The notes under the pieces: generated by a model
Told to the model about the DNA's origin: nothing
The model's input: only the letters and a program-made list of their open reading frames with translations
The model's database searches: none
Part shown: positions 8,001-59,330 of the stretch, piece after piece
How positions within the stretch are numbered: the stretch's first letter is position 1
Layout: each line of letters opens with the position of its first letter
Translations under genes and position numbers: made by a program
Assembly (NCBI GenBank): GCA_043228905.1
Contig: JBHGNT010000014.1
Location: 3,348,001-3,412,000, forward strand
Source: Azolla caroliniana
Taxonomy: Eukaryota > Plantae > Polypodiophyta
Reading direction: 5' to 3'
DNA length: 64,000 nt

Positions 8001-11000
8001 GACAACATGCTCCTCACTCTTTCCATTATCGTCCAATTCATCCTCTCTGCAAGTCCATTCAGTTTAGGGTTCTTAAGTACTGTGTATTCAACTCGAATAC
8101 CTTGGGCCTTCCCGTATTCTCGAATTGTCCTCTGTACTCGCCACCGTTGTCGGTTCAAATAGCCTTCAATTTCTGACCTGACTCTCTTTCGGCTTTGGCC
8201 TGGAACTCCTTGAAGAACGACAGACAGTGCTTGATCCTTCGATTTAGTAAAAAAAGCCCACATCTTTCAACTATAGTCGTCAATGAATGTAACAAAGTAT
8301 TGTCCACCACGATGCGATGGAGCATCCACGTAGCACACGGCTGTGTGTACTAGTTCCAGTGCACATTCTCTGCTCTTTGGTGGTCTTGAGTGGAATGCTA
8401 CTCTGTTCTGCTTTCCGACCACGCAGTCGACACATCTCTCTAGGTGCACTCCTTTTACTTTTGGAAGAAGTTTCTGGTCGGCTGGGATATGCATACCCTT
8501 TTCGCTCATATGGCCAAGCCTCTTATGCCATATCTCTCCACTCGAGTCGGCAACCACATTCGCTTCATCCTTGCACAGCTTGGCTTGCATCATATACAAT
8601 GTGCCTTGTTTTTGTGCTCGGGCCACTATGAGGTTCCCCCCATAGCACTTCCATTTGCCATTTCAAAAACTACCACTGTAGCCTTCATCGTCCAATTTTC
8701 CGGTTGAAAAGCATGTAAGCTTACCCTTGGACTTGGATCTGGCATGGGACTTGTCCCTTCTTTATAGACTTCTTTGTTTGCTCCTTCCTCTGCCCGAATG
8801 TTGCAACACATTTGCATCTGACTAGGACAAGCCCCCCTTGTCCTTCCTTCTCGTCTCCTCGTTCAAGATGCTTGTCTTTACAACTGGTAGAGACAAGTTC
8901 TCTTCTTGAAACAAGGTGTTGAGAGTCACCACCAGGTTCTCCCAGCTGTCTGGCAGGGTACACAGCAATAGAAGGGCCGGCATAGGATCATCAAGAGGAA
9001 ACTTGGCTGCAGCAAGTTGATTTACTAGCCCCATGAATGTATTGATGTGTACTACTATGCTTTCTCCATCTTTGTACTTCAATCTCATGATCTTTCTCAT
9101 CAAAGATGTTTTGTTGAGAGCATTTTTCCTCTTGTACAGCCCTAACAACTTCTGCCACATCTTGTAGGCATTAGTGTCATTAGCCACATGTTGAAGGACA
9201 CTCACATCTACACATTGTTCGATGGTGGCCACCGCCTTCATGTTCTGGAGTTTCCATTCAGACTCTAATACCCCTATGGGTATTTCTTCTCTGTCAATGG
9301 GCTCGTACAGATCTTTGACTATGAGAAGATCTTCCATCTTGATCTTCCAGTCTGCATAGTTGTGTGAGTTCAAGACCATCATTCCTGGAAAACCACTCAC
9401 ACCTCCTTCCATCTTTGCACTTGTCACTCTGATACCAGTTTGAAAGGATAAGATCACAAATCTATGAGAAACAGTAGGCAGAGACTTTACACAACACGGA
9501 AAAAACAGAAATATAACAGAGCACAGAGTACACAGTATTTTATGTGGAAACCCTAAAACAAGGGAAAACCACGGGCAACAAAGGATCACTATAACAGAGA
9601 TATACAAGGGAAGAGCAGATTACAACACTCACGCTCTCGCGTCTCTCTTCCTCTCACTTTGTTACCCTCAATACAAAAGCGCTTCGTTACATTTTGCCCT
9701 AGGTGTATTTATACTTATACACAATATGGGCTATTTACAAATATAGCAACTATTATTATTATTATTAGTTGATCAGCCAACTAGTCGATTCCTATGTCGA
9801 TTTTCCAGTCGGCCCGAGTAGCCAACTCCCATGTCGGCTATCCAGTCGGCCCGACTATTCGGTCTTGTGATCGACTTAGATCCTCCATCTAATACTGTCA
9901 ACTCTCCTAGTCGACTCATTGGTCGATCCGATCGGCAATCCTATGTTCGGCTTGTCAATCCGACTGTCAACTTCTTCCTCGACTTTGACTGTCGACTTCT
10001 CCCGTAGGAGGGACATTTTCCTAACAATAAGAACCTAAGCTCCTTGGACACAATGCAACAACAATGTTGTTGCTTCTCCTCTGAACTAAACTTACATTCT
10101 GCACTCTAGTCAGCTCATTCTCCTGACCCCAAGCCATAAGACATGTGTAATGAAGGCTCCTCTTGCTTGAAAGATCTCTCCATTCTGGATCAACCTTGCT
10201 AGAGATCTTTCAAATACAAAAATTACAATCTAATTGCCTTGAGAATCCTACATATATCGATAATGGGATTCTTTAGTCACTTTTATTTTTACTTGGTTTT
10301 TCTACTTAGTTACATTTATTTTGTTTTGTTATTTGTTCTCAAAGACGTGACAATGCTTTAAGATGTAATCTCGTTTGGTCTTATTGGCCATTTTGGCCTC
10401 TTAAAAGAGGTTGATATTTCTTTCTTTCTTTCTCAATAGACAAATTGAAAAGAAGTATATGCAATGGCCTACTGACCACCATCATGTATTTCCAATTGTT
10501 TAGAGAAATAACCACCAGTTTTAACAATCCCTATAGGTTTGCTTGTGAGAAGAGAGAAATTCGGAGAATTTTTCTTCAGCTCAAAATATTTCTGAATTGT
10601 TTTAGTTTCTATGAATATTTTGAAGAACTCTCAGGCATTTGAGACCCTGTTGCTGCCAGGTTCCTGCTAAATATATGTAGTACATACCTAGAGGTATCAA
10701 CAACCACTACTTTAGGAGAGATCCTCACTTTATTATCAGGTTCTTCTGCAGTCTTCATCGGTTTTAATTGAACATTTTGCTATTGGCTGATTCACATTCT
10801 TCCCATTGAATCTTGGTAGTCCTTCTAAGAAAGCGTATTGCATGATAACAGGCACAAAACTTTATATCCCTACCAGCCCATCAAGAAACAGATTCCATTA
10901 TTACAGCAACCCAACTATTAGACAGCATCCAAATTAACATTTTTTCTCACTCTATATTTTTTCGGTATTGTTCGATTATCCCAAAGCTTGCAATGATCTT

Positions 11001-20638: not shown

Positions 20639-21643
20639 TGTTGGGCTAAAAGTCGGGCACTCTACCCAAATATGTACTCTTAATGTGAGCATGTCCTCAC
20701 AGTTAGGTCTTAGTTACCCTAACTATAAAAAGTGAGAGATTGAGCCTTGTAAAGCAATTCGGCGGGATTTGGAATACGATTGTCTCTTGAACTCTAACCA
20801 TGTAATTATCATCTTCTTTCTCTTTCTCTGCATACTCTTAATCACAGATTGAACAATGCACCAACATATTCTCACTTGTCATCTGTTTGCTTGATCCATA
20901 CACAAAGGATCCTATTTGCTATTCTGCAACTAGTCAGTTGATCATCTCACACTAACCGACTAAAGTACACCCATAGTGCTCACAAAGTGATAGTAGAGCA
21001 ATCTTGGAATCCAACAACAGCAACCATACAAGGAGAAGATCAAATTGGATGAAGAAAAGGACCAAGTCAAGATCTCACTTCCACAAAATGATGGCCTTGA
21101 CATTCGACACCAACAACAAGATCAGAAAATTTGACGGCAAGAACTTTGCCCTTTGGAAGGAGGTGATGCAGGATGTACTGATCATTCGGCATCAAGTTGA
21201 GGCGATACGACACAATGCCAATGCGACCTCAATGATATCAGAAGAATGACGCACTTGGCTAAAAACTTCTATTTTAGCATGGCCAAAGAGACGTCGGCAT
21301 ACACCATGTGGGAGAAGCTCCAGGCCATGTACGAGAAGAAATCGTCTTCGTTGAAACTCATTTTGATCTGATAAGTGTTCAAAATGAAGATGAAGGAGTC
21401 GGAACTGACAACCTATCACATCAACACCTTTAGCTGGGTGTTAGCCGAACTCTCCTCTCAAGGGCTAAACTTCGAAGAAGAAATCAAAGCCCTTGCATTT
21501 CTCTCGAGCCTGTGAGCGAGTTGGGAAGTATTCTACACACAATTCATGAATAACTCCCTGAAGTTGACGTTAGATGAGGCTATCAGAACGATACTATTGG
21601 AAGACATCCGACGAAGGTCAATGGGGCTCTCCATTGACGATAG
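20639..21643 (+). mobile_element. 5' part of a copia element (LTR about 20639-20984, degenerate PBS, gag), interrupted by the gypsy at 21644
   Basis: TG..CA block with TATAAAA at about 20724. PBS-like TGATAGTAGAGC at about 20988. Gag IRKFDGKNFALWKEVMQD is homologous to the gag at 37383-37958 and resumes briefly after 31013. Confidence 0.75.
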
Positions 21644-22099
21644 TGTTACCCGGACTCGGACAGTCAGTTTTACCGAACAAATGGGAAAGCGTCGAAAACG
21701 GAGTCGGTTCGGATCGACTGTTCGGATCAATGACTCAGCAGTGAACAAAGAGAACTAAGTTAGTTAGATAATTTTGTAATTCTTGATAGTAAGTAGGAAT
21801 AGTTCTTGATGAGAAAAGACCTTCGGTATACCTATAAAAGGGAACCGAAGGCATTGTAAGAAAGGTCGTTTATTTAGTAATATAAGTTAAAGTTAGGAAT
21901 ATCATGTACGGATTCTGTGTTCTTTCTATTGTCTATGTTGTTAAGTGCAAGCTTCCTAATTTATAACTAAGTAACGATCACAGTAATTACCGATTAATAT
22001 AGTATAATTCCGTTCGTAAAACACAATTCCTTGTTAGAACGTTGAGTAGCAACGTTCACTCTTCTGTATCGGTAGTAGTTAGTAATTAGCCGATTAACA
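21644..22099 (+). repeat. 5' LTR of gypsy 21644-31008
   Basis: TGTTA...TAACA termini; TATAAAAG at about 21833. Confidence 0.95.
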
Positions 22100-22110
22100 C
22101 AGAAGAAATT

Positions 22111-22123
22111 TGGCACGCCCGGT
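22111..22123 (+). promoter_or_regulatory. Primer binding site (probably tRNA-Arg)
   Basis: TGGCACGCCCGGT, the Arg-type PBS known from Tat/Ogre-related gypsies. It lies 11 nt downstream of the LTR end. Confidence 0.75.
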
Positions 22124-22158
22124 TACATCTGCAATTAAGCAGAGAACAAATCGAATGG

Positions 22159-25100
22159 ATGTCGTATGAAGAGGAGACACCGGTCAGTTGTAAGCGCCCT
22201 CGTACAAGGTCAGTTACGAAGGTAGTGCAGCAAGCGTTCATTGCGCAAGAACAGCCGGAATCAAGCACAAAGTGGTCGAAACTTCCTGACTTATCCGATC
22301 AATTACCTTCAGACGAAAAACAGACGGAAGAGGTATCGTTTTACGACATTTGGGACGATATGCCTTATACTTATTCTAAGTTCCGGGAAGGAACAGATGC
22401 GGAAGCACATGTTAGGGATTTCTTAACGACATGGGAGATTAACCATGGAGCTCAGCGATTGTCGGCAGATGCCGAAGATAAGTCAAAAATCGCTGAGTTC
22501 GTCTTATCATTAGAAGGATATTCCGCCAATTGGTTTGCGCAGAACGGTCTTCAAGGATTTCCATCCTTTGAAGTGTTAACTAGTAAATTTTTACAATTAT
22601 TTCATCAACAAATTCCGCAGAAGGATTTGATTGCGCAATTTTATGCGTTATATCAAGAAAAAAATGAAACAGTATCTCAGTTTGTGATACGATTTCAGAA
22701 CTTACAGCTTCAGATTTCAAGGCCGATTCCGGATAAGGAATTAAAAGAAGTCTTTCTAGAAGCTGTAAAAGAACCATTAAGGACGACATTGAAAGTGTTC
22801 GATTTTCGAAATCAGACTATCGAATAAGTAATTGATAAAGCAATAGAAATGGGTCGACCACCGGTCAATGTTCAGAGTATGGACATGTCGGCATTACACC
22901 GTACATTACCAACAATAGAGGAGTTACAATTTCGACAAGCAGTTCAATGCACCACTTGTTTAAATACGGGGCATTCGGCAATTGAATGTACGTTAAGAAC
23001 ACATTGTACAATATGTCATTCAAAATTACATTCAGTAGAACAATGTGAATATAATCTGCTTAATAAAACTACGACGTCAGTACGACAAATTTTTACTGAC
23101 AATGGTTACCAAAATAACACTAATCTGTTCAATGGTTATCAAAATAATAATTTTTCACAAAATCAGCAAAATGTACAACAAAATCCGGTTCTACAGCCAA
23201 ATCAGATCTTTTCACAACAAAATATGCAACCCACTCAAGTGACTCAAGCATTTCAACCAGGTTTTGCTCAATCCAACCCACCATTCGTACAGAATCCGAA
23301 TCAATATTTTCAACAAAATAATCAAAGTTTCCAACAAGGTAACCCACCATTTCAAGGGTTTCAACAGAACGGTCCGAATGTGCAACCGAATTCTACATAT
23401 CAACCAAATCCGGCATTTCAACCGGGTAATATGACCTTTCAACATAATACTCAAACCGTTCCACAAAATAATCAAATGTTTCAACAGAATAATTTTCCGC
23501 CAAATCAGGAGTTCGAGATAACACAAAATGTAGCACAACCAAATGATAATACCGAACAATTTAGGCAGAATCGGTATAAAAATAAGAGATTTTACAAACC
23601 AAAAGCTACGCGTCAATACCAACAAAACCCGAGTGGTAATGAAGAGCAGCAATTTAATAACGGCCAATTTGCACATGGAGAGACCGGTGGAACATTTGTA
23701 CCCACTTGTTATATTTGTCGACAACTAGGCCATTATGCTAATCAATGTCCGGTTAAAGGAAAGGGTTCAGCAGTTAATATGGTAATACCGGAAGTTCAGC
23801 AAGTAACGACACGCAGCAAAAGCAAACAATCAGAGTGGGAAATTCAGGAAGAAGTTCGGAAGGCGGCAAAAGAATGGGTTGACGAAGCAAATCAAAGTAA
23901 TGTGAATCGAATGTTACAAGACAATAACATTGACCAGAACATCGTTGTACAACAGTCATTGGGGAATAAGGAACAGGAAGAAACTTGGAAACTGTTGGCT
24001 GATTGCCAAGTGTCATTGCCACTTACGGGCTTACTTAAGTTAGTACCAAGGTTTACAGAAAAAGTGGCAGAATTAATTGCATATAAAGGTTCCGAACAAA
24101 TAGCAGTACACTACAATAAGCCAAGTAATAACCCTTCGATCATGGATGAACAGAATCCGTCGATTAAGGTAATACTTTACGGGCAAGAAGTCGGAAATGT
24201 GATTATAGATGGAGGCTCGAGAGTTAATGTGATTAACAAAGCTACATGTGAAAAACTAGGAATCACGGAATGGGAAGCATGTCCGTTTTGGTTACGAATG
24301 GCAGATACAAGTACGGTACGACCGATTGGTTTGCTTCGACAACTGGATGTAATAATCGGGGGACACAGTTTTCAGATTTCGGCAGTAATTTTGCAGTTAG
24401 AAACACAGGGAGCATACCCCTTGTTATTGGGGAGACCATGGTTAAAGACAGCTAATATCAAACAAAATTGGAAACAAAATGTGCTAACATTTAGGAAAGG
24501 AAAAACTAAGGTCAGGATTCCGACGCACAACAAAGTGACAACAAGCAAACAGAGTTTACCCGTACATGCAGAAGCAGTTAATATGATGGAAGGATTGGAC
24601 GAGGAAGAAGAAAGTCAGTATTTCAATGATAATAAAAAAATCATCCCTCTATTTGAGGTAGATATTTTGCAAGCATTAACACCATATGTAGACTCACACG
24701 AAGAAGTGCCAATAGATGAACAAACAATGAAAGAAATACGAATGCAACAAGAAGCTACAGATAAGGAAATGAAGGTATCGCAGAGAGTGCAAGCCTCAGC
24801 ATTGGAGGAGATCGATTTGGCAGGAGTAGAGGATGGTGAAAGAAAAACAGTCTTGATTGCTAGAGATTTGGCAGAAAATGACAAACGGACATTAACAACA
24901 TTACTATTACAATATAAAGATGTTTTTGCATGGTCGTTTGACGATATGAAAGGTCTGGATCCCGCTTTTTGTCAACATCAAATCAATTTGCATAAAGATG
25001 CAAAGCCAGTACAACAACGCAGGTACAGGTTGAATCCGAATTATGCTATCAAAGTTAAAGAAGAAATCGATAAACTCTTAAAAGTAGGATTTATTCGACC

Positions 25101-27650
25101 CGTCAAAAAATCAACATGGCTGAGTCCGATAGTAGTAGTCCCAAAAAAGAATGGGAAAATTCGCGTATGTGTGGATTACAGAAAATTGAATGCAGCGACA
25201 ATTACGGATACGTTTCCGTTGCCATTCACAGATGGGATATTAGATGCAGTAGCTGGACATGAAATTTATAGTTTCTTGGATGGGTTCAGTGGGTACAACC
25301 AAGTACGGATGAATCCGGAAGATCAGGAAAAGACAGCTTTTGTCACAAAATGGGGTGTCTTTGTGGCAGTAGTAATGATGTTCGGTTTAAAAACAGCTCC
25401 AGCTACATTTCAGCGAGTAATACAGGAAATATTCGGGGAATATATTCCAGCTTTCATGCAGGTGTTTTTAGATGATTTTGCGGTATATAGTCGGAAAGCT
25501 AATCATTTTGAGCATTTATGGCTATGTTTAGAAAAATGTCGAAAAGGGCGTCTTAGCTTAAATCCAGCCAAATGCGCATTCGGAGTTATGAGTGGTACGT
25601 TACTTGGGCATATTGTCAGTCAAGAAGGGATTGCAGTGGACCCAGACAAAGTTAAAGCAATTATGGAGGCAACACCACCAACAAATGCTAAAGCTCTGAG
25701 TAGATTTTTGGGTCAAATTCGGTGGCACAGTAGAATGATGAGATATCTAGCAGACATTGCTATTCCGTTACACACAGCAGTACACAAAGTTCCTTTTATA
25801 TGGACAAGTATAGAACAGGATGCATACGAATGTCTCAAGAGGATGCTGACAAAGGTTCCGGTAGTTCAACCACCGGACTGGAACAAACCATTTCATGTTT
25901 TCGTCGATGCGTCGGACATTGCCATAGGCAGTGCTTTAATGCAATTATCCGAACCAAACTGGTATAGGCCGGTATACTATGCCAGTAGGAAACTTTCGTC
26001 GGCCGAAAGAAACTATTCAACAACCGAAAGAGAAGCTTTGGGAATGATATATAGTGTGAACAAATTTCGACATTACCTTTTGGGTAAGAAATTTACATTT
26101 CATGTGGATCATTCGGCTCTACTGTATCTAGTTTCCAAACAAGAACTGACAGGCAAGTTAGCCAGATGGACGTTATTGCTTCAAGAGTTTGAATTCGACA
26201 TTATACATCGACCAGGAGCACAGCACGCGATTGCTGACTATCTCAGTCGGCTTGAATATGGAGAAGAAGCGGTTGGTGTTAAAGATGATTTTCCAGATAC
26301 TCAATTATTTCGGGTTGAGGCAGTAAAAGCACAAGAAATGAATGAGGAAAAAGAGGATGAATGGATTTCCGAAATGACGATATTTCTATCAACAGGAATT
26401 CCGGCCGAACACATGTCGACAGATGAAAGAAAAAGAATTGCAGTATAAAGTCAAAATTTTTGTTTATTTAATGACATGTTGTATCATAAAGGAGCGGATG
26501 GAATATGGCGAAGGGCAGTACGGAAATTTGAAAAATTAGCCATATTAACAGAGTCACATTGTGGAATTGCTGGCGGTCATTAGCAGGAGAAGCAACAACC
26601 AGAAAAATATGGAATAGCGGGTTATGGTGGCCAACGGTGATGAAAGATGCTAACGAATACTGTAAGAAATGCGATTTGTGTCAAAGAATGGGGCAACCAA
26701 CCGAAAAGGATCGAATGCCTTTTCAACCGGTTTGACCTCTTGAGCCATTTCAGAAATGGGGCTTAGATTTTGTTGGCCCATTCAAACCAGCAGCTGCAAG
26801 AACCAATAATCGATATATCATAATTGCGACTGACTATTGCACAAAATGGGTTGAAGCAAAAGCTCTCAGAGACAATACAACAGCATCCACAGCAAAATTC
26901 CTGTATGAAAATATATGGTGTCGATTCGGTTGCCCAATAGAATTGGTAAGCGATCAAGGCACTCATTTTATTAACAAGTTAATATACGAATTAACTAATT
27001 ATTATGTCGTAGTTCATATGAAAAGTACGCCTTACTATCCCCAAGCTAATGGATTGGCAGAATCGACAAATAAAACAATTCAAACAATTTTAAAGAAGAT
27101 AGTGAATGAAAATCGTACTGATTGGGATCAAAAGTTAAATAGTGCATTATGGGCATATCGTACTTCGTACAAAACATCCATTAAATCAACACCTTTCCGA
27201 ATGGCATTCGGACTTGAAGCCGTTATGCCGATCGAATTTCAAATTCCGACACTTCGTATCCAAGCGACGAATAAGTTAAATGAAATAGAATCGGAGCAGA
27301 TACGCAAAGAGGCTTTATTAGTATTCGAAGAAGAACGGATTCAATCAATGTCAGCACTAGAACACAAGCAGAGACAAATTAAGGCATTCGTAAATCGACA
27401 TCGAAGGAAATCGGAAGAGCAATTCGAAATTGGGAAACCGGTATTGGTATTCCAGACGAAAATGGGACTTATGCCTGGGAAACTCCGGTATAGATGGACA
27501 GGTCCAGTATGGATAATTAATAGTAAAAATGGTACGTATCAGCTGGGATCATTAACCGGAGAGGCTTTACCGAAATGGGTAAATGGATTCCGGCTTAAAC
27601 CGTATTTGGGAGATATGTCGGTAAACCCGTTTATTCAAACGGAAGAGTAA
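22159..27650 (+). pseudogene. Gypsy gag-pol polyprotein (single frame, disrupted)
   Basis: ORFs 22159-22827 and 22849-26448 are in the same frame with an internal TAA. Three CCHC knuckles, PR IIDGGS, RT CVDYR/FLDD, RNase H VDAS..DHSAL, INT (GLDFVGP, SDQGTHF, YYPQANGLAE). Further stop at 26446, frameshift at about 26581, stop at about 26733. Confidence 0.93.
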
Positions 27651-27850
27651 AAAAAAAAATTAAAAAAAAAAAAAAAAACTAACTCAATAGTTCTTGTCAA
27701 ATGTAGAAATACAATCTTGCCATAACAGTCTTAATCGACTATAAATAGAAAGAGGAATTGCATGATTATTAGTAAATAGTACAACCACTACACGTAGAGT
27801 TAATACTAATTAATTCCTACATTAATAGCAATTACTATTCTTTAGTCATA

Positions 27851-30508
27851 ATGCATAAGTTAATATCGTTAAAGCATATTTCCGTATCTTCTGTGTCGCC
27901 AAAGCAACAGAAACGAGTGCAGATATCAAAATATTCTGAGCCTTCGTGCCCTAGCTCGCCCAAACTCTGTTTTTCTGATTTTCATCGCTACAGAAGCTGT
28001 GAAGATCTCCAACCGTCATCGACAAGTGATTCAGAACAAGCAAACACAGAAGTCATGCCGATTCCTGTGTCTGAAGAACTGCGACTGTGGCTTCATGAGA
28101 GAAACTTACAAGGTTTCATCAAAGTAGCAGAAGCGGAACCTCATCCGCAGGCGGAAGAATTGGTACAACAACTAGACATCACCAAGGTTACCACAAAGAA
28201 AATACGAAATGCATTACAGATGCCAAGAGGAGGCTTTGAGGCAGTTAAAAAACCTTCATCAGAAGCACTCCAATCGTATTTCGGGGAATACTCACCCTCG
28301 GCAAAAGCATATCAGACTTATGGAGGTCGGGATGAGTTTTTCCATGAAGTGGCTAGATTTTTATTAGAGGTGGGATTTGTCAGTCCTCGTTTTTATTGTA
28401 TGCCGAAAAAAAGGGTTGGGTTTATCATAGCCGCATACGAAAAAGAGGATTTCAACTGGCCACTATTGTCGGGGGAAGCTCTGAGAGAGCAGCTACAAGG
28501 GGTAAAAACAGGAAAACCAATGAAGCAAATTTTTGGTCGTTGGCTATCGGTATTGTTTCCGATTCAAGAATCGGAAACTCCTGTTCAGTCAAGAAGACCA
28601 CCGATAGTACAAGCACCGCGAAGACACCGACAGGTAGTACATGAAGAATGGATAGAGGAAGAATCGGCACATGCCGATAATATACAAACGGATATGCCTC
28701 AGTCGGAACCACCAAGACCAGAGAATCCCGAAAACAGGCAACCAGCAGCCGAACAAGAAACAGTTGACCATTTGATAAACAAGCAGCAGCCGACAGAAAA
28801 TCGACAACAAGCGGAGAAGATGCGACAAAGGACAAGGGTTAAACAAAAGGCTAATCGGCAATTCCAACCAGAAAACAGGGATGGGTCAGCACTGAAAAGG
28901 CAACGCACAAAGGAAAATTTGAATACGCCTGTAGTAGCAGAGAATGAGAGCGTTTCGACACAACCTCAACAAGGACAATCTTCAAAAGTAGCAATTCGGG
29001 AAGCACATGGGTACTTGGATATTCCACCAGCAGCACATGAATTAGCGGCCATTTTACAGTTCGGAACTTCATACGAACTGGTTGAATGGTTGGCTAAAAG
29101 ATTGACAGAAGTATCAGAACGGCTAGCTCAAGAACATAATGACCGAATAATGATACAGAAAGCCTTACAAGGAGTGTTGGAACCTCAAGAAAAAGCAGAG
29201 ATAGAGAAAATCGGCCGGAAAAGAAATGCACAGAATAGAGGAGAGGCTATTGAAATGCCACCATTACATGAAGCACTGGTCGAAATTCATAAAGAATATG
29301 AAACGGCACGCAAAGCAGCCAGTGATATGGCTGAAAGATACAAAAGTGTATCAGCATCGGCGGAGGTGCTGAAACATCAGTTTTGTAACATACAGGCAGA
29401 AAATAAAGAACTAAAAGAAAGTCTAAACAAATGGGAAACGCAGGCACGGCCTATGGCGTCGGAGTCAGAATGGCAGCAGAAATTGGAGGACGCTGAAAAA
29501 GCACGTCAAGCAGAAACAACAAGGGCCAACAATGCTGTACTTCGAACTACAGAATTAGAAAAACAAATAGAAACTATTCAAAATGGCCAATACAAAGTTC
29601 TCGAAGAAAAAAATCAATTAATAAACGAATTACAGAAAAATCTCGAAGAAGCTAAGACGGCCAATCATACATATACCGAACAAATTGAGGAATTCGAAAG
29701 GTATATAGTGTCACAGGAAAGTCAATTGACAGAAAAAGAGCGGAGTCTTGAAGAAGTCAACAGAAGAATTACGGAACAGCAGGAGGAATGGAGCAAAGAG
29801 AAATCGGCATTCGAACAACAACTGAACGAAATTCGGAAGATATCGGAACAAAGGTGGCTGGACATATATGTAGTCGAATCCAAACTAATGCGAGCTGAAA
29901 GTGAAAACCGAGCTACTATTACGGATTTACGGAAAGAGTTGCAAACCGCTCAATACGTCGCAAGCATCACTAAGGACAAAGTGCAGCACATCATAGGGAA
30001 ACATCGAATCCTAGCAAAGAAAATGATCGATGAATCCCTTGCGCAAGGATGGAAGTTATGGACGGCACAAGCGGCAGAATTACAGTTATTGCGCGCCGAC
30101 AAAAATAACCGTCAGGTCCAAGGTGCAGGTTTTTTTAAAATGGCACAAAAGGATATTGACAATATCCAAGAGGATATCATGAAAGATATGGACGAAATTG
30201 CGGCATTTTACAGAGAAGAAATTCAACGTATTATGCAAGAATTCGACAAAAATGATATAGGCACTTCCGTCCAGTTGGATAAAATCGAAGCCGAAAGAAC
30301 CAGCAAGACTCCTGGTCTTCAAGCTCCCGGAAGATGTGAACTAGAGCAGCCAACCGAATCACAACATTCAAAACCTGCTCCGAATGACGACTGTGACACA
30401 GATGAAGATGAAGATGAAGAGGAAGATATAGATGGAATACATCCAAGGCCAGAAGAGCCTTCGATTTTTGATATTCTGAACGATTCGGATGAAGAGCTAC
30501 AGGAATAG
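27851..30508 (+). CDS. Extra retrotransposon ORF (885 aa): N-terminal globular region, Q/E/P-rich linker, long coiled coil, acidic tail
   Basis: Uninterrupted 2.66-kb ORF between INT and the 3' LTR. Heptad-like E/K/Q/L-rich region in the C-terminal half; DEDEDEEED tail. No obvious signal peptide or TM segment. Confidence 0.85.
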   Translation: MHKLISLKHISVSSVSPKQQKRVQISKYSEPSCPSSPKLCFSDFHRYRSCEDLQPSSTSDSEQANTEVMPIPVSEELRLWLHERNLQGFIKVAEAEPHPQAEELVQQLDITKVTTKKIRNALQMPRGGFEAVKKPSSEALQSYFGEYSPSAKAYQTYGGRDEFFHEVARFLLEVGFVSPRFYCMPKKRVGFIIAAYEKEDFNWPLLSGEALREQLQGVKTGKPMKQIFGRWLSVLFPIQESETPVQSRRPPIVQAPRRHRQVVHEEWIEEESAHADNIQTDMPQSEPPRPENPENRQPAAEQETVDHLINKQQPTENRQQAEKMRQRTRVKQKANRQFQPENRDGSALKRQRTKENLNTPVVAENESVSTQPQQGQSSKVAIREAHGYLDIPPAAHELAAILQFGTSYELVEWLAKRLTEVSERLAQEHNDRIMIQKALQGVLEPQEKAEIEKIGRKRNAQNRGEAIEMPPLHEALVEIHKEYETARKAASDMAERYKSVSASAEVLKHQFCNIQAENKELKESLNKWETQARPMASESEWQQKLEDAEKARQAETTRANNAVLRTTELEKQIETIQNGQYKVLEEKNQLINELQKNLEEAKTANHTYTEQIEEFERYIVSQESQLTEKERSLEEVNRRITEQQEEWSKEKSAFEQQLNEIRKISEQRWLDIYVVESKLMRAESENRATITDLRKELQTAQYVASITKDKVQHIIGKHRILAKKMIDESLAQGWKLWTAQAAELQLLRADKNNRQVQGAGFFKMAQKDIDNIQEDIMKDMDEIAAFYREEIQRIMQEFDKNDIGTSVQLDKIEAERTSKTPGLQAPGRCELEQPTESQHSKPAPNDDCDTDEDEDEEEDIDGIHPRPEEPSIFDILNDSDEELQE

Positions 30509-30552
30509 GCGTGGGTTCGCTGGACAAGGTCCTGGTCCACGAACGTGCCAAG

Positions 30553-31008
30553 TGTTACCCGGACTCGGACAGTCAGTTTTACCGAACAAGTGGGAAAGCG
30601 TCGAAAACGGAGTCGGTTCGGATTGACTGTTCGGATCAATGACTCAACAGTGAACAAAGAGAACTAAGTTAGTTAGATAATTTTGTAATTCTTGATAGTA
30701 AGTAGGAATAGTTCTTGATGAGAAAAGACCTTCGGTATACCTATAAAAGGGAACCGAAGGCATTGTAAGAAAGGTCGTTTATTTAGTAATATAAGTTTAA
30801 GTTAGGAATATCATGTACGGATTCTGTGTTCTTTCTATTGTCTATGTTGTTAAGTGCAAGCTTCCTAATTTATAACTAAGTAACGATCACGGTAATTACC
30901 GATTAATATAGTATAATTCCGTTCGTAAAACACAATTCCTTGTTAGAACGTTGAGTAGTGACGTTCACTCTTCTGTATCGGTAGTAGTTAGTAATTAGCC
31001 AATTAACA
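30553..31008 (+). repeat. 3' LTR of gypsy 21644-31008
   Basis: Direct repeat of 21644-22099, followed by TSD GATAG. Confidence 0.95.
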
Positions 31009-31030
31009 GATAGTGCAGAAGCCCATTTCT

Positions 31031-36200: not shown

Positions 36201-38100
36201 TCTGGATCGAAGGGTCTTCACTCTATGTCCCGACCGGTTCTCCACTTCAGATATCCATAGAGTGAAGACCTTGAGTGCTTCATCTTTGGACTTGACGGAG
36301 TATGCCCAAACTTTCCATGTACAGTCATCTACGAATGTGATGAAGTACCAGGAGCCTCCTAGTGATCGCTCTGTCTTGGGCCCACATATGTCTGTGTGCA
36401 CGAGCTCTAGGGGTTGTCATATCGTATCGTAGTGGAGAGAATGCGGACTTCGGGTCTGTTTCCCATATCGACAATGCTCGCAGAAGTCCGTCTTTGCCTG
36501 GAGTTTCGAGAGGTAGCCAACCGACATCAACCGATCAAGTCTAGCTTGAGACATATGGCCGAGTCGGCCATGCCATAAGTTTGGGTCGGTCTTTTTGGCT
36601 ACGTTCACGACCCCTTCAGGGTTGATCGCCATCAATGGGTACAAATTGTTGTACTTGTACCCACTCCCGATTTTTAGGTTTCCCCGGCTGATCACCCATG
36701 TCGACTCGTGTAGAGTCGTTCTGTACCCGTCTTCGGCTAACATGTCAATGGAGACCAGACTCCTCTTTAGATCGAGTATGTGCCGAACTCGGTGCAGGGT
36801 TATTGTGTTGCCATTTGGCAATCTGATGGGAACTTCTCCAGTTCCTGCAATCTTGCACTCCTGCCCGTTTCCCAGCCGGACTGTGCCGCTGGCATCGGTT
36901 GAATAGTTCGAAAACCATTCGACGTTGGGGGTCACGTGAAATGTGGCACCGGAGTCTAGCAGCCACGTGTGTGCAACTTGTGCACTGTAGAGGACTTCTC
37001 CGATCATCGAGTCCTCTAGAGAGAGGATTTCTCCGGATCGGGTGTTGGCAACATTGATCTGGTTGCCGACTGGAGAGTGGTCCAATTTGGAACGTCCCCG
37101 ATTCCGCTCGGATTGCCGACCACTCTCTTTTCTTTTTATTGACCAGTAGTCGGAAACATTGTGGCCAGCTTTCCTGCAGTGTGTGCAGTACTGACTTGTT
37201 CGGCCCGTTCTCGACTTCGATCATTGTCGGTCACCCCTTGTTTTCGATCGGCTATAGCGTCGACCAATTCTGTCGACTTGTTCTTTCGTTCGACCCTATC
37301 GGTTGAACGACTCGGTCGAGTGATGGGCTTCTGCCAACTCATCGATTTTTGCCTGATGTCCTCTGTGAGGACTTGGCGGTGGTTAGTTCCATCGATTTTC
37401 ACCTGATGTCCTCTGTGAGGACTTGGCGGTTGTTTCGTCCAAATTCAGGATCGGTCGGCTATTGTCGTATGTCGTACAAAATATTTCCCAACTCGTCGGC
37501 AAGCTCGGTAGGAGGGCAAGGGCTTTCACTTCTTCTTCGAAGTTGATCCCTTGGGACGAGAGCTCTGACAGCACCCGATTGAAGGTGTTGATGTGGGAGG
37601 TTGCCGGATCAGTCTCTTTCATCTTCATGTTGAACAATTGTTTGATCAATATCAGTTTTGAAGATGAGGACTTCTTCTCATATATGGCCTGTAATTTCTC
37701 CCACAATGAGAACGTTGTCGTCTCTTTTGCCATGCTTAAATAGACGTTTTCAACCAGATGCATTCGGATGGTAGAGCGTGTTATTTCGTCCATTGATCTC
37801 CACTCTTCTGTTGTCATCGAAGCAAGCTTTTCGTTATGCCGAATGGCTTCGACCTGTCTTCGGATAATCAGCGCATCTTGCATCATCTCTTTCCACAGGG
37901 CAAAGTTTTTGTCGTCGAACTTTCTAATTTCAACTCCTCTTCTGGATGTTGAAGCCATATTCTTTCTGTGGATTTGATGTTTCTGACCTGGTCTTTTCTT
38001 TCAGCTTCTTCTGTTATCTGTTGTCGCCGCACATTAGAACACAACTCTGGTACCCTTGTTAGTGAATGAGTCGATAGTTATGCGGAAGTGTGTGTTCGGA
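33203..38100 (-). mobile_element. Ty1/copia element with a complete 3' LTR (33203-33503) and a truncated 5' LTR (38057-~38100)
   Basis: TGTTAGTGAATGA..GCGGAAGTGTGTGTTCG is shared at 33203 and 38057. PPT from 33504. Degenerate PBS at about 38045-38055. Gag 37383-37958, PR LDSGATFH, INT, RT, RNase H. Confidence 0.88.
33618..36071 (-). CDS. pol: Copia pol C-terminal part (INT C-terminus, RT, RNase H), 817 aa open frame
   Basis: FWAEALQTAVYLIN, KARLVAKGFKQEYGVDY, LYVDDMLI, YTDSDYAG, CDSQSAI, HAKTKHIEVRYH. Upstream gag/PR/INT are broken by stops. Confidence 0.85.
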   Translation of the reverse strand: MTTMLQQAGLKLEFWAEALQTAVYLINLASSRAIRLEVPHALWSSKQLTYDRLRIFGCEAYAFIPRDKRTKLAPHATKCIFLGYGTNGDFGYRLWDPENRKLIWSSDVVFNEDSIFSQRNQQKTVGKKVSFEDDNVIVERSTHWAELESQQTIELQPADNVLADTESAISPNVELEEKVIKDRAKSTKVDQGRVNKGQVRKELTTTVGENNQTPPKSQTGGGIPNKTPDSNGSTNADRQKELIEESEPNNTAPRRYGRARRQTKFYQPGPDYVNYTDAGEPRTYDEAMAAPDVETWLQAMKSEMDLIHQNQTWELVELQAGRKPLPCKWVFRYKYVSNSEKPKYKARLVAKGFKQEYGVDYDEIFSLVVKMTTLQLLLRVVATKDLKLEQMDVKTTFLHGDLEEDICMSQPAGFTSTGEDSHLVCRLKKSLYGLKQASRMWYQKFDSYIRQLGYNRSNSDPCMYVRQLADESRIYLILYVDDMLIAGSNQSEIGKLKWSLHAKFAMKELGQARHILGMRIERNWTTRTLRLSLSDYIRKVLKHFNMENAKSALTSLPTSIRQLDRDSPTMDKERELNGKIPYASAVGSIMYAMVATRPDLGYAVGVVSRYMSNPGKKHWEAVKHILRYLKGTTDAQLTFGSTTSTEVEGYTDSDYAGNTDNRKLTSGIFTYGGGAISWRSKFQECTTLSTTEAEYIAALEVAKEAIWLHLLTADFGTTSRTDRSTPTIHCDSQSAIHLINNRVYHAKTKHIEVRYHHIRELVTKKKLEVRKIDTEVNIADCLTKPLPDQRFGTLRTKMGLRQVIEQKKAKREAEGKS

Positions 38101-38715: not shown

Positions 38716-39292
38716 TTCACTTATGGAGAAAGTTGCCCTTCTTTGTAGTGTCAGATCAAGGGCCTCAATGGAACTATCAACTTCTTCTTCTTTTCATAAA
38801 GATTTCCTTCATTAGTATTAAGAAAAGCGTTAGAGGGCTACAAAAATGTAAAGTCGGAGAGTATTATATACAAAAGAAATAGTCAGGGCAAGGACTAGGG
38901 GTGATTATATTTCCATAACGGTCCTTGAGAGGAGATTGTGAACAGAGGCAACTTCCTCCATAATTGTAGTAATTTTTTCCTTTTCTTCAAAACAACCTCC
39001 GAAGAGCCTGGTAGAGGAAGTGAGAAGAGGAGAGAGAGATAGCGAGGATGAGAGAGAGAGAAAGATGATGACAACAGCTAATATATTATGTGAAAAGATA
39101 AGTACAAAGTGGCTAAGAGGCTTAAGACTGGCGTTGAACCAATTTGGTTCAACATAATGTCTAGTGCCTTCTTTTATAGTGTTGTCAGGAGTAATCCTGA
39201 AACTTCTAGAATGTTCCAGAGAAATCTGGAATATACATTACTTTCTTATAATAAAACATAAATGAAAATAATATCCTATGAATTACAATAGA

Positions 39293-39355
39293 TGGTGTGA
39301 TGGTTAAGAGCTCGACCCATATACCATAAGGTCATGGGTTCGAGTCTTGCCATAT
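39293..39355 (+). promoter_or_regulatory. tRNA-like Pol III A/B box module in the LTR (second copy at about 43850-43912)
   Basis: A-box TGGTGTGATGG at 39293-39303, AAGGTC variable-loop-like segment, B-box GGTTCGAGTCT at 39337-39347. Starts are 44 nt apart, as in tRNA genes. Confidence 0.6.
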
Positions 39356-42280
39356 CATGACACTATCTCCCCCTTAACGACGACGAGTGGAACGAGTCGG
39401 TGCTGATTGCGGACCGGGTTTGTTCGGATACTTTTGCTGATCAACTCATACTCCGGGCCGGCGTCCAACTCGAGCAGGGGCGGCAGTGGTGTAACACGAT
39501 TGGGAATGGTGTTGGCTTTATAAGGTTCAAGAAGAGAACAATGGAAAACTGGATGTATCTGAAGCTGCGAAGGGAGATCAAGGCGGAATGTGACATCATT
39601 AACCTTACCCGTAATACGGAAAGGACCGAGTCGTCGATAATCCAACTTGTTGCACGGTCGAGTAGTCTTGATGTGACGACATAAGAGCCATACTCGATCT
39701 CCGATGGCAAAAGAGGAGGGAAGCCGATGACGATCCGCGTAAGTCTTCTGTGTCTGTTGAGCATGACGAAGATGAGTTGAGAGATCTGTTTGGATCTTGC
39801 GTAGTCTCTCCAAATGATCCCCGGCACGAGGATTGGTAGGTAGTTCCGGGGTGTCAATCACCGACCAACGAGGATGAGAACCGGTATAAGCGTAGAATGG
39901 GGAGACTCGAGTCGAGGAGTGAACAACATTATTATACGCAAACTCCGCAAAGTGGAGAATCTCGGCCCAATCGTCCTGCTGATAACTCAAGAAACACCGG
40001 AGATATTGCTCCAGCGTTTGGTTTGTTCGTTCCGCCTGCCCATCGGTCTGAGGATGGTAGCCGGAGGAGAGGTTGCAAGAGACCTTGAGCATCTTGAAGA
40101 GATGCTGCCAAAATTTGGAGACAAATTGCGGTCCTTAGTCACTGATGATACTATCTGGGAGGCCATGATGCCGAAATACCTCACGCATGACTAGGGCGGC
40201 GGTTTCCTCGCTAGTGATGGCCTTAGTACACGGAAAGAAATGTGCCATCTTCATATATCGATCGACAACGGTTAAGATAGCATCGAACCCCTGCGAGACC
40301 GGCAGATCTGTGATAAAATCAAGACAAATAGACTGCCACGGCTTACTTGGAATCGGTAAGGGTTCCAATAAGCCATATGGATGGTGTCGTGGCATCTTTG
40401 CTCGGCAGCAAGCATCACAGGTCCGAACGTAATCGTCAACAAAATGGCGCATGTGGGGCCACCAAAAAGATCGTTGCACTAGCTCCAACGTCTTAGTACT
40501 ACCGAAATGTCCCGTTGTATGGGTGTCGTGACAATGCTGGACAATTTGAAGGCGACATGAGCAATCAGGGACATATACGCGCTTTTTAAAGAATAACAAA
40601 CCATTATGATATTCGAATTGTCGGTAGTCAATACCTGGTTGTTGAGACTGAGAACAAGATGCCCGAGAAGTATCAATGTGTGCCAGGATGTCTTGACCAA
40701 AGCTATCTGTCTTCAAGTTTGCACGTATGTCATCGGTAATCCGTGAATCCATCGGGGTGTGAAAAATCCGTGTCATGTGCAATCGTGTTGGTCCCAAGAT
40801 TACTTGCTTTTGATTATCAAATGTTGGATCACCAGGACGAGGTGCAAGATACGAACGTCGTGATAGTGCATCTGCTTTTCCTTGCTGCTTCCCCAGTCAA
40901 TATGTGATTTTGAAGTCGAAATGCGTGAGGAATTGCGCCCACCGAGCTTGCCGTCGATTTAGTACGCGAGCGTTCTGGAAATAAGCAAGATTTTTATGAT
41001 CACTAAAGACAATGACCTAATGTGGAGACCATTCTCGCGGAGTCGTTTTAGTACTAATAGTACATGAGAATCGTGCTCTTGCTGGGTCTTCGAATAAATC
41101 AATAGATCATCCAGATAGATGATCAAACAGATATCCAAGAGGTCTCTGAATATATCATTTGTCATGTGTTGGAAGACTGCGGGTGCATTGGTTAAGCCGA
41201 ACAGCATAACAGTATACTCGAAATGCCCATATCGCGTGCGAAAGGCGGTCTTCCATTCATCTCCCGGTCGGATCCGCACGAGGTTATACGCTCCTCGTAG
41301 ATCGATTTTGGTAAAAAACTTGGCACCATTAACTCGCTCCAAAAGACTTGATATAAGAGGAAGTGCATACCTATTCCGGATGGTGACCTTATTCAATCCG
41401 CAGTAATCAACGACGAGACGAAGTGAGCCATCTTTCTTCTTGACAAAGAAGATGGGTGCACCGGCCGGAGATTTCGAATGACGGATGAACCCGCTTGCCA
41501 AGTTCTCCTCTATGTAGGCTCGAAGGACTTCTAACTCGGTGGGTGACAAGTTGTAAATTGGTCCCCATGGTGGCTCGATTCCTGGTTGTAAATCGATGGG
41601 ACAGTCATAGGGACGGTGATGAGGAAGGGTACTGGCTTTTACCTTGTCAAATACATCGGTATAAGGATGATATTTTGCCGGAAGTTGTACTGAGGAGTCC
41701 TTCTTAATAGTGCTGGAAGGATGCACTGATATTGCAAATAGGAACATTGCCTCCTTGTGTCCTTCTTCACGTAATTGATGGAGTGAAATGGTCGAAACTC
41801 GGTGAGTAGATTCTTGGGGTGGTCGATATCGGACTTCTCTTGTTCTCCAATCTATGGCTGGATTATGTAATTCAAACCAAGGTAATCCTAGGACAATGGG
41901 ATGCTCTGGACTACTAATTATATTAAATGATATTACACACACAAAACTACCTAGGACAACTTGAATGGATTCTGATTCTTCTACAATATTCCCAGAAGCA
42001 ATGGGACGACCATCAATGACTACTACAGATGCGGGACAAGGAAGTTTTCTTAAGGATATCTGAGAAGCTTGGGCAAAATTTCGATCCATGAAACAGGAAT
42101 TAGCTCCGGAATCTAAAAGTGCTAGGACGGGTACTGGAGGAGTACTTTTAGTACTAACAATGACTTGGGCTAGGAACACATTGCTAACTTGCTTAGAAGG
42201 AATGGAACCACTAATAGGCTGTACAGATCTAGGGTTGCTGTCCAACCAAACGGCTCCTATTTTGGCTGGACTCAATCGTT
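39355..42280 (-). pseudogene. pol: Tcn1-like pol (PR-RT-partial RNase H-INT) with deletion and frameshifts
   Basis: ORFs 40959-42275, 40135-40797, 39355-40092. RT jumps directly into the late RNase H motif (FSDHKNL) near 41025. Confidence 0.85.
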
Positions 42281-43429
42281 TAACTCTTCATCTAATTGAC
42301 TAAGGACTTCAAATTTATTTGAGATACTTGGGCTATTAGTATTATGAATACTATCTGACACCCTATTAGTACTATTAATACTATCAGACACTCCGAAGGG
42401 AATAATTGACTCGGGTTTAGTACAGGCGACGATTTGATTTACCTGTCTTCTTGGCCTATGGGGACAATTGATGGCGATATGCCCTGGTCCACCGCAATAA
42501 AGACATAATCGATTGGCACGCCGTCGTTGCTTTTCTTCTTCCGATAATGGGCCGCGTCGACGCATGGTGTCGATCTCCATCGGTGTCGGAATATTGGCTT
42601 GAGGTACATCGCGTGCAAATGGTTTAGCCGTGACTGGGGCGTATGTGGGTTCCGGCCGAGAGCGTGGCATTTGTAACTGACGTTCCGAACGCCGTTCGAA
42701 AAGGTGATTGTCGCATCGGACCGCTCGACTGATTGCCTTCGTAAGAGACTTTGGTTACTCGAGGAAGGTTAAAAGCAAGTCTTTGACATCGTTGCGCAAG
42801 CCATAGCGAAACTGCTCCATGAGGGCCTGATCATCCCAGGGGATATCTGAGGCGAGTAGGCGGAAATCTACCGCGTAGGCCAAGGCTGGACGATCGCCTT
42901 GACGCAATCTTCGGATCTTGTTGATCACCGTCCTGATGTTGTCGGTATCTCCAAAGCAAGCTTTAAACTCACCAATAAAATCTTCAAAGTTATTAAGCAA
43001 GGGTGATTGTTTTTCTAGAAGTGGAGCGAACCATGCCAAGGCTGAGCCGCTAAGTAACGTGCCTATTAGGCCGACTCGAGATGCATCAATGGGATATCGG
43101 GAAGGATGCATCTGGATGACTAAGCATACCTGATTAAGGAATCCCCGGAATTGCGATCGTGTTCCATCAAATTTCACAGGAAGTCCAATCTTGGGCTCTT
43201 TATGAAATCCTTGGGGACTTGATCCTTGTTGTTGCAACGCTACTTCGAGTTGTTGTACCCGTAACGCTAACTCCCCATGTTGTTGTTGTGTTTGTTGTTT
43301 TTCGAGAGCGATTTGTTGCAGATCCCCTATCAACCATTGGTTTTCTTGTTCCAGGGCAACAAACTTTTCTTTTAGACACTGTAACTCGGAGAAAACGGAT
43401 TGATATACTTGGGCACTAACAGTAGCCAT
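42272..43429 (-). pseudogene. gag: Tcn1-like gag (frameshifted near 42755)
   Basis: MATVSAQ.. coiled-coil N-terminus, retrotransposon gag capsid region, CCHC knuckle, ends LDEELND*. Confidence 0.85.
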
Positions 43430-44339
43430 AGTATAGGGAAAAGGGTAGGAGGAAAGGAAGAGAAATTGGTTCAAACTGTCAGGAATAGTACTAAAGCAGA
43501 GATGGAATTAGTACTAATAAGAGAAGTACTATTAATACTAAGAAGATGGGACTGCGTGAGATTCCCGGGAGAGGAAGTGAGAAGAGGAGAGAGAGATAGC
43601 GAGGATGAGAGAGAGAGAAAGATGATGACAACAGCTAATATATTATGTGAAAAGATAAGTACAAAGCGGCTAAGAGGCTTAAGACTGGCGTTGAACCAAT
43701 TTGGTTCAACATAATGTCTAGTGCCTTCTTTTATAGTGTTGTCAGGAGTAATCCTAAAACTTCTAGAATGTTCCAGAGAAATCTGGAATATACATTACTT
43801 TCTTATAATAAAATATAAATGAAAATAATATCCTATGAATTACAATAGATGGTGTGATGGTTAAGAGCTCGACCCATATACCATAAGGTCATGAGTTCGA
43901 GTCTTGCCATATCATGACAACAAGAGATTGGAATAGAACTATCGACTTCCATGGACCCTTTCTTGAATATTAGTAGACCATGCCAGTGTACCTCATCAAG
44001 TTTCAACACCCCTTTATAAGTTCCTATATTTGGCCTTACGATAACTGTACATAAAATGTTGTAAGCCTCTGGACAGCTAACTTCAAGTTGTAGCTTTCAG
44101 GTGTTTTTTCTTAATACTAAAGAAAATCTCTCAAGGAAAAAAAAAACACACAGTTTTCCATCAATTCATTTTCCATTACTTCAACTTCTTTAAGCACACT
44201 TTGATGCAAGATTGTCTCTAGTTACATGATATTTTCAAATTTTCTTTCAACACTTTTGAGCACAACTTATTTTCAGATTTTTTTCTTCAGATTTCCCACC
44301 AATAATATAATCATTACTAAAAGAAGACTATTTTCTTAC

Positions 44340-52583: not shown

Positions 52584-53120
52584 TACATGTAACATACTTT
52601 GGAAAATGCTACATTTGGTGGAAAGCATTCATAGTCCACATGACCTTGTTCTTGTATGATATGGATACTCCTATCAACTTCAATGACATCTTGGAATGTG
52701 TTTAATAACAGTGATGCTCTTGAAATATTTGCCCACATTCCTATTTTATGCTGGTATCATTTCATAGATCTGGCCAATGTTTGCTTGATAGGTGGGAGTG
52801 TATTATAGTTGTAGAATTTACTGAAGATACAGGATGGGATATGATTAATTTTGTTCATGTCAATGAAGATGGGGCATGGCATTCTCATTAAAATGGTCTT
52901 GATTTTGCTAGAAGATGATATTGAGGTTCTAGGGCTGTAGGAATCAATAATCATTTTGTCACATATGAATCTATGATTGATGATGTGGGGACTATCGGTG
53001 TCAGTCTATGAAATATTCTTGAATCTTAAGTGGTCTCGTGCTTGAAAACCTAGCAAACATTTTCCTTAGATGGAGAATTATTGAAAGAGGAAGTTCCCCA
53101 TGCAGTCTCTATCCCCCACT

Positions 53121-53591
53121 TGTTAAGAGTCTATTACTAATCAATAGACCAAATCAAGTAAAAAGGAAGAAAATAGATTGGATAGAAGAACCCGTTCCAC
53201 CCGACCACCCCCGAGCTATGATCTAGACATAGCCAACCTACCACCGACGTCCCATACCGCCGGATATTAGGATGACTAATACCTTGGAAGAGATAAACAC
53301 GATCGTCGAGACGAAAGCCTAGCCCGCACCACCGGTGTCTACGACAGCAGCCTTCCGACGTGATCCTTATGAGGGTAGCTAAGCCTCATATTTATACCTT
53401 TTCCTAGGCCCCTTGAATAGATGTGCCTTTCTAAAAGGCTCTCTATTCATTGGTTGTCTAAATCATGATAGTGCATGCACATATCATTCATTCTATCCAA
53501 TCATTAGTCCCCTTTTTAATAATAGTGAACATACCCTTCACTAATGTAAATATTAGTGACCTACCCTCACCAACGTTATGTGTACATAACA
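53121..53591 (-). repeat. 3' LTR of gypsy 53121-60230
   Basis: TG...CA termini; matches 59760-60230. Confidence 0.95.
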
Positions 53592-53598
53592 TACTCCC

Positions 53599-59000: not shown

Positions 59001-59330
59001 CATGCACCTCCTCAAGACCACCACATATCCCTAGAATCGGCCAAGTAATGGCTAATTAAAGAGGAAAGTGGCATAGGTAAGTGACATATACCTCGTCAAG
59101 GCCACATCATCCCTTAGAATCGGCCAATTGATGGCTAATTAAAAAGGAAAGTGGCATATGTAAGCTACATATACCTTGTCAAGGCCACAACATCCCATAG
59201 AATCGGCCAATTGATGGCTTAATAGAGAGTAGAGTGGCATAGGTAGGCAACATACACCTCGTCAAGGCCACATCATCCCTTAGAATCGGCCAAGTGATGG
59301 CTCAATAGAGGGGAAGAGTGGTATACTCAA
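59001..59330. repeat. Tandem array, 4 x ~83 bp, in the retrotransposon 5' leader
   Basis: Units start at about 59001, 59085, 59168, 59251 (CATAyACCTCGTCAAGGCCACATCATCCCTTAGAATCGGCCAA..GTGGCATA). Confidence 0.9.

Follow-up and report, generated by a model that had tools for sequence, protein, structure and literature searches.

A tRNA-sense sequence ending in CCA stands in place of the polypurine tract in a clade of Ty3/Gypsy retrotransposons

We analyzed a stretch of 64,000 nucleotides (nt) from Azolla caroliniana (GenBank assembly GCA_043228905.1, contig JBHGNT010000014.1, positions 3,348,001 to 3,412,000 of the forward strand), called the window throughout. It contains a full-length Ty3/Gypsy long terminal repeat (LTR) retrotransposon at positions 21644-31008 that has no polypurine tract (PPT) in front of its 3' LTR. 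At that site the element carries a tRNA-sense sequence ending in CCA. This PPT-less, tRNA-sense motif is real, conserved, clade-defining, and apparently undescribed. Comparison of the sequences indicates that a clade of Ty3/Gypsy elements has replaced the PPT with the tRNA-sense sequence, and that the replacement is derived.

The motif in front of the 3' LTR

An earlier reading of the letters alone (the sequence-only reading) had claimed that no purine run lies between the stop codon of the third open reading frame (ORF3; TAG 30506-30508) and the 3' LTR. The coordinates check, and we confirmed the absence in the 44 nt concerned (30509-30552). Upstream of the 3' LTR, purine runs reach 3 nt at most in the final 20 bases and 5 nt in the final 60, compared with 7-10 nt in the window's four other LTR elements. 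The same reading had noticed that CGTGCCA (30544-30550), whose last base is separated from the LTR by 2 nt, matches in reverse complement the opening 7 nt of the element's own primer-binding site (PBS; 22111), and this is also correct. A match of this kind has a chance of 2.5e-5 per site, or 1.5e-4 over six offsets. The 2-nt spacing that it called canonical applies to this 3' tail but not to the element's PBS, which lies 11 nt from the 5' LTR. The parts of the junction are as follows.

30511-30520, plus strand: tRNA-sense block 1, the 5' strand of the T stem and a T-loop-like TTCG; 0-2 changes in 7 of 7 aligned junctions
30522-30532, plus strand: inserted mini-hairpin GGAC-AAG-GTCC; letters vary, pairing retained
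30534-30550, plus strand: tRNA-sense block 2, the 3' strand of the T stem, acceptor strand, discriminator, and CCA; an inverted PBS on the minus strand
30551-30552, plus strand: spacer from CCA to the 3' LTR; 2 nt, the last being G, in 8 of 8 junctions
30553-31008, plus strand: 3' LTR, begins TG

The names of the arms, the 3' half of tRNA-Arg, and the numbering that puts the insert just after A58 are what we take them to be for this tRNA.

Seven loci from metagenome contigs (see the next section) carry the 40-nt motif as well. In all eight junctions the tail, its CCA end, and the spacing are kept as CCA, 2 nt, and TG, with CTA (a C-to-T change) in the locus L051. In none of the junctions does a purine run exceed 3 nt over the final 20 bases, and within 60 nt the longest is 3-7 nt. 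The CCA end occupies the site where PPT-bearing relatives carry their purine run.

We aligned seven of the junctions, leaving out L051 for its poor alignment in the 5' half. The motif has three parts. The first, of 10 nt, is similar to a T-stem strand and T loop; an insert of ~13 nt follows, and the last 17 nt form a block that closes with CCA. Deviations from the column majority make up 15 of 189 cells in the tRNA-like columns and 22 of 91 cells in the insert. In the insert, the stem pairing is kept while two of its pairs vary, one as G-C/C-G/U-A and the other as G-C/A-U. RNAalifold gives a bulged consensus hairpin of 11 pairs, with 91% of cells paired and three pairs changed on both sides. 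Seven cells in this fold are doubly changed, a count reached by none of 500 shuffles and inflated by the relatedness of the sequences. As judged from this alignment, the covarying element is the small hairpin of 3-4 bp in the middle of the motif, which it interrupts behind the TTCGA block. In the T stem there is no double (compensatory) change, as expected if it is kept for its sequence and not for folding. Conservation is highest in the 10-nt acceptor strand adjoining the LTR, although the consensus fold leaves it unpaired.

The sequence-only reading had folded the whole 44 nt as one hairpin. Its named stems do exist in the window copy, where the 47-nt stretch folds at -18.4 kcal/mol (z -1.95; 7 of 200 shuffles as good), but the long hairpin is not what is conserved, and the comparison does not support it as the functional fold. 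The whole-motif folds of the relatives are no better than shuffles (RNA z -0.9 to +0.7 in six relatives; DNA z -1.4 to +0.7). The 13 pairs proposed are formed in 71% of cells across the seven junctions, against a shuffled mean of 69.5% with 46 of 500 shuffles as high, and we therefore rejected the single 44-nt hairpin. Its TGGAC/GTCCA stem is broken in most relatives, while the GTTCG/CGAAC part can pair in relatives too by way of wobble. The two inner stems are perfected by T30536 and A30542, letters private to this copy or its close kin. Covariation upstream of the LTR, which that reading had proposed to look for, is found in the mini-hairpin and not in the long one.

The motif is in tRNA sense on the genomic RNA, and therefore a tRNA can pair only with the minus-strand DNA. 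The motif is not a tRNA gene, a candidate that we rejected since ARAGORN reports 0 genes and Rfam gives no tRNA match at E up to 10; neither program found a tRNA in the window or in 14 loci. For comparison we used the 5' 19 nt of the Arabidopsis nuclear tRNA-Arg(TCT), which begins GCGCTCG (PMC5389709). The acceptor strand of the motif is complementary to this 5' end, and either letter pairs at the variable position. Bases 5-11 of the PBS equal the same 5' end except at two wobble positions. The suggestion that the segment matches tRNA-Arg(UCU) thus stands as far as its tRNA sense and its fit to the acceptor stem of the nuclear tRNA.

In the five elements with both ends seen, the PBS agrees with the complement of the tail over 7, 11, 8, 8, and 1 contiguous bases. 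We found no complement of block 1 elsewhere in the element, apart from one match with one mismatch in pol. The greater part of the motif therefore lacks a partner in the RNA of the element itself. In L051, an old, decayed copy with LTRs 83% identical, the PBS (645-662) differs from the complement of the tail (10305-10321) at 9 of 18 positions, with three transversions in the first 15. The tail keeps an Arg-type end despite this divergence, and the PBS appears closer to the Arg(ACG) type, from which it differs by four transitions (Arabidopsis 5' end). This weakly suggests that the PBS and tail of this old copy fit two different tRNAs.

The spacer between 5' LTR and PBS is 4-5 nt in L005, L015, L016, and L051 and ~11 nt in the PPT-bearing L078. 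Since L078 has a spacer of that length, and since the spacers of Athila are 3-6 nt (preprint 10.64898/2026.03.20.713144), the 11-nt spacer of the window element is not tied to the motif. Its length means that 11 nt must be trimmed off the right end of the cDNA. Close to its 3' end (~22060), the LTR contains a complement of the first 7 nt of this spacer (22100-22110).

Distribution and descent of the motif

Parts of the element are contained in 20 public DNA runs, 10 of which include half of its words or more; none of the public runs listed as containing it is an RNA run. Depth in these runs is contig depth, which sums other families too and is not a copy number. In all four runs compared, position 30536 is C in 98.7-99.9% of the depth and position 30542 is G in 92-99%; the window copy has T and A. 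T30536 and A30542 are private to the window copy or a small subfamily. Over positions 30526-30553, contig depth is raised several-fold, and numerous contigs show loose ends to either side of this segment. Therefore, other families share it. A G-to-A change at 30545 accounts for 3-10% of depth and C-to-T at 30544 is not listed, which is no more than a hint of an asymmetry between G-to-A and C-to-T changes.

A scan of metagenome contigs by integrase alignment confirmed 534 loci, the best 80 of which were analyzed. Nine of these reach at least 3 kb past the integrase, and six of the nine carry the motif before the start of an LTR: L005, L013, L015, L016, and L071, with integrases 64-73% identical to that of the window element, and L051, at 49%. 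Among the remaining three, L059 and L078 (44-45%) have an ordinary PPT, and the contig of L030 stops before any LTR. In L069 the LTR that follows the motif is not collinear with the integrase match. L013 and L016 are near-duplicates, as are L015 and L071, so that the seven metagenome loci and the window give eight junctions from about six independent families. More distant loci have a purine tract before TG, clear in L002 and weak in L048, where the LTR boundary is unconfirmed. L059, L078, L002, and L048 have in common a GC-rich stretch 20-45 nt upstream of the PPT or purine run.

The absence of a PPT is accordingly a trait of the family and of the clade, which answers the question of whether other copies have an ordinary one. 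We rejected a private deletion or rearrangement, as the motif is at the same place in seven other loci. A covariance model built from the seven aligned junctions and run over 369,845 bases recovered those seven, one bacterial match selected by pattern, and five weak matches (E 0.6-2.4). In prokaryote genomes there was one motif match, read as chance. In viral contigs there were 0, 1, and 3 protein matches across searches, one unrelated pattern match, and 0 motif matches.

In an integrase tree of 45 rows (34 unlabelled; midpoint root; one search), the seven motif rows fall on one side of a single branch (99/95) against four PPT rows, which requires one change. The motif rows are nested among PPT-bearing rows and named liverwort proteins. 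PPT-less rows nested in this way mean that the motif is a derived replacement of the PPT. The motif group sits with rows from non-seed plants, apart from six angiosperm rows (90/79, not starred). By identity, the nearest named relatives of the reverse transcriptase (RT) and RNase H come from Riccia, Adiantum, and Marchantia (49-55%), in keeping with a host among the non-seed plants.

Candidate mechanisms of plus-strand priming

The sequence-only reading had offered two mechanisms, a tRNA annealed in two parts to the minus-strand DNA and an element-encoded primer, and these are the best two candidates. From the sequence comparisons, we think that a second host tRNA-Arg may well anneal to the minus-strand DNA at the tRNA-sense site and prime the plus strand. 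Once RNase H had cleared the genomic RNA, the minus DNA would expose ~17 nt complementary to the tRNA's 3' end and ~10 nt complementary to its T arm, the mini-hairpin forming a loop between the two stretches. Nucleocapsid would open the tRNA and RT would extend its CCA end; RNase H would then remove the tRNA, and integrase would trim off the 2 nt of spacer. Since the bulge and hairpin would break the continuity of the RNA:DNA hybrid, they may shield the tRNA against premature cutting by RNase H and help to displace genomic RNA that is left over. The tRNA-like conservation extends further than the 13 nt of the PBS, and pairing with the tRNA in question explains it best; the fixed 2-nt distance to the LTR marks the 3' end of a primer. 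The insert lies directly 5' of the 17-nt tail, a length close to the 18 nt of a retroviral PBS (PMC13332604).

Several points weigh against priming by a second tRNA or give it no help. A wobble test of the 15 deviating cells decides neither way: five are changes that pairing of tRNA with minus DNA tolerates (G-to-A or T-to-C), two are neutral, lying at a column where either letter pairs, and eight are not tolerated. L051 clearly retains only block 2, and its junction is among the five weak matches of the covariance model (11.8 bits, E 2.2). In the window family, the changes at 30520 and 30535 would mispair with the tRNA but extend the element's own hairpin by a compensatory pair, which shows that intramolecular structure matters. 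Mixed loose contig ends in the public runs (agreement 0.55-0.95) show purine runs directly upstream of the motif in some other families. Furthermore, a tRNA paired to DNA is a substrate of RNase H, so that protection must be assumed.

The main rival, possible but tentative, is that the element provides the primer itself, its structured tRNA-like RNA surviving RNase H, being cut after CCA, and being extended in place. RT would then accept the segment as a stand-in for the PPT through its likeness to the end of the cognate tRNA. No second tRNA is required here, and the position and 2-nt spacing would be the same. The 11-pair consensus hairpin, with 91% of cells paired and its three doubly changed pairs, is in keeping with such a primer, as is the compensatory pair of the window family at the T-loop-like positions. 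However, single-sequence folds are no better than shuffles in the six relatives (the RNA z scores of -0.9 to +0.7 given above), the outer stem never covaries, and the 10-nt acceptor strand beside the LTR is the most conserved part though unpaired. RT is not known to need a match to 27 nt of tRNA sequence, which also counts against this reading.

We consider it unlikely that the tail serves by pairing with the PBS, in circularization, strand transfer, or the control of minus-strand priming, while the plus strand starts from another signal such as an upstream purine run and integrase trims a longer end. The predicted duplexes are of -14 to -26 kcal/mol in four elements, bridging of 5' and 3' ends is known in Ty3 and Drosophila Gypsy (PMC5371799, PMC1635307), the lineage tolerates LTR-PBS spacers of 4-11 nt, and the purine runs ~45 nt upstream in the loose contig ends of some families could supply the start. 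Against this, the pairing is interrupted at base 8 or 9 in three of five elements and L051 lacks it, the element contains nothing with which block 1 could pair, and the eight junctions have no purine runs longer than 3-7 nt within 60 nt of the LTR. Pairing with the PBS would also not fix the 2-nt distance to the LTR.

Somewhat more doubtful still is a hairpin in the minus-strand DNA acting as the signal that makes RT pause, places RNase H, or engages a host primase, with the tRNA likeness a relic of template switching onto a packaged tRNA. A stem of 3-4 bp with a loop of 3-4 nt is a shape that is stable in DNA, and the minus strand is predicted to form the mini-hairpin in five of six relatives. 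The DNA folds, however, do not exceed shuffles (z -1.4 to +0.7), and conservation is three times better at the tRNA-like letters than at those of the hairpin. Finally, an accident private to one decayed copy, be it a rearrangement or a match by chance, which would suit the pol stops, the frameshift, and the two private motif letters of the window copy, is hardly credible and counts as refuted by the motif's presence at the same place in seven other loci with integrase identities of 49-73%, and by the lack of any other strong model site in the 369,845 bases except the one pattern-selected bacterial match.

Architecture and relation to known elements

The remaining features of the element are listed here.

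21639-21643, plus strand: left target-site duplication (TSD) GATAG, identical to 31009-31013
21644-22099, plus strand: 5' LTR, 456 bp, TG...CA; 8 mismatches against the 3' LTR
22100-22110, plus strand: LTR-PBS spacer, 11 nt
22111-22123, plus strand: minus-strand PBS of tRNA-Arg type, ~13 nt, a length based on the L051 tail
22159-22827, plus strand: 5' part of gag (Retrotrans_gag, Pfam), closed by an in-frame stop
22849-26448, plus strand: rest of gag-pol, with CCHC knuckle, protease-like motif, RT, and RNase H; in-frame stop at the end
26736-27650, plus strand: integrase core and C-terminus, after a stop and frameshift in this copy
27851-30508, plus strand: ORF3, 885 aa, no Pfam match
31009-31013, plus strand: right TSD GATAG

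Pfam places gag, RT, RNase H, and integrase in Gypsy order. The RT and RNase H motifs are intact, including the acidic catalytic motifs of RNase H; the protease is a motif seen by eye, with no Pfam match at E 0.001. The window copy has two in-frame stops and one frameshift in gag-pol, and a 99%-identical relative, P0002, has a single open frame of 1830 aa. ORF3 is intact in the window copy despite the broken gag-pol. It has no Pfam match and an Atlas look-up gave no result, and an ORF homologous to it occurs in six inner-clade loci (L005, L006, L013, L015, L016, and L071). No homologue was detected in L051, L030, or the PPT-bearing loci. The element adjoins, and probably lies inside, a decayed Copia-type gag remnant (21121-21532) that is 59% identical to an ORF at 37383-38000.

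Two other Gypsy elements of the window lie on the minus strand. The first, at 39007-43919, has a normal PPT and no TGG-type PBS after the matched repeat, where the 3' boundary of the LTR is uncertain; its LTR holds no self-primer complement of at least 9 nt. The second, at 53116-60230, is a very young chromodomain element with LTRs 99.8% identical and a tRNA-Met PBS, and its leader contains tandem repeats of 83 bp and 118 bp (58992-59534).

The plus strands of Ty3 and HIV-1 are primed from a PPT that resists RNase H (PMC5371799, PMC13332604). The window clade has in common with these systems the LTRs, the tRNA PBS, RT/RNase H, integrase, and a 2-nt end spacer at the plus-strand start; it differs in that the purine tract is missing and its site is taken by a tRNA-sense CCA end. 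HIV mutants lacking the 3' PPT are unfit with no detectable integration (PMC13332604), whereas the window clade is abundant and integrates with clean TSDs. Ty3 and Drosophila Gypsy, with a bipartite or second PBS, likewise have tRNA-related sequence near the 3' end of the genome and a split pairing with acceptor stem and T arm. However, their 3' sites are complementary to the tRNA at the level of the genomic RNA and function in starting the minus strand, and a PPT is still present (PMC5371799, PMC1635307). We rejected a bipartite PBS of the Ty3 type for the window element, as its site is tRNA-sense and replaces the PPT.

Athila, Tat, Phygy, and Selgy elements resemble the window element in having no chromodomain, a non-Met PBS, an extra 3' ORF, and an LTR-PBS spacer of several nt (PMC6317226; ATHILAfinder preprint); unlike them, the window element has no PPT. 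Athila also has a 5-bp TSD, and its PBS is for tRNA-Asp, -Asn, or -Ala in place of the tRNA-Arg type. The Tat/Ogre/Retand group was rejected because the window element lacks the additional archaeal-type RNase H that is a Tat trait, only RT_RNaseH models matching. Phygy and Selgy were rejected for their 4-bp TSD, tRNA-Trp or -Ala PBS, and lack of an extra ORF, against the 5-bp TSD, tRNA-Arg PBS, and ORF3 seen here (PMC6317226). A chromovirus was rejected since Pfam detects no chromodomain at the integrase C-terminus; the chromodomain found in the window belongs to another element.

A survey of plant elements describes three primer types, all for the minus strand (PMC6317226). The self-priming Tf1 and Tcn1 and the half-tRNA-primed Copia elements also depart from the standard primer, but in the minus strand only, with the plus strand started from a PPT (PMC6317226, PMC10085805). 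The available portions of PMC10085805 and PMC11963269 contain nothing on PPT loss. Among the literature matches listed, which do not cover subscription papers and in one search were dominated by other uses of the abbreviation, none describes a plus strand that lacks a PPT or is primed by tRNA.

Priming from a PPT is taught as a trait that retroviruses share with LTR retrotransposons, and the known exceptions concern the minus strand only. Taking all the evidence together, we see it as about evenly balanced whether a widespread and successful Gypsy clade of non-seed plants uses host tRNAs as primers for both DNA strands. The second tRNA would act on DNA at a split site from which a hairpin is looped out, and in some families it would differ from the first. 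Even if the element instead provides its own primer, the priming signal would be new. Annotation is affected as well, since software that demands a PPT will overlook these elements or rank them lower. If the reading is true, the PPT, which is treated as universal in LTR elements and retroviruses, is dispensable. The clade would then offer a direct test of what RT/RNase H needs in a plus-strand primer, and an abundant natural clade that integrates normally without a PPT would represent a second way in which the left end of the cDNA can be defined.

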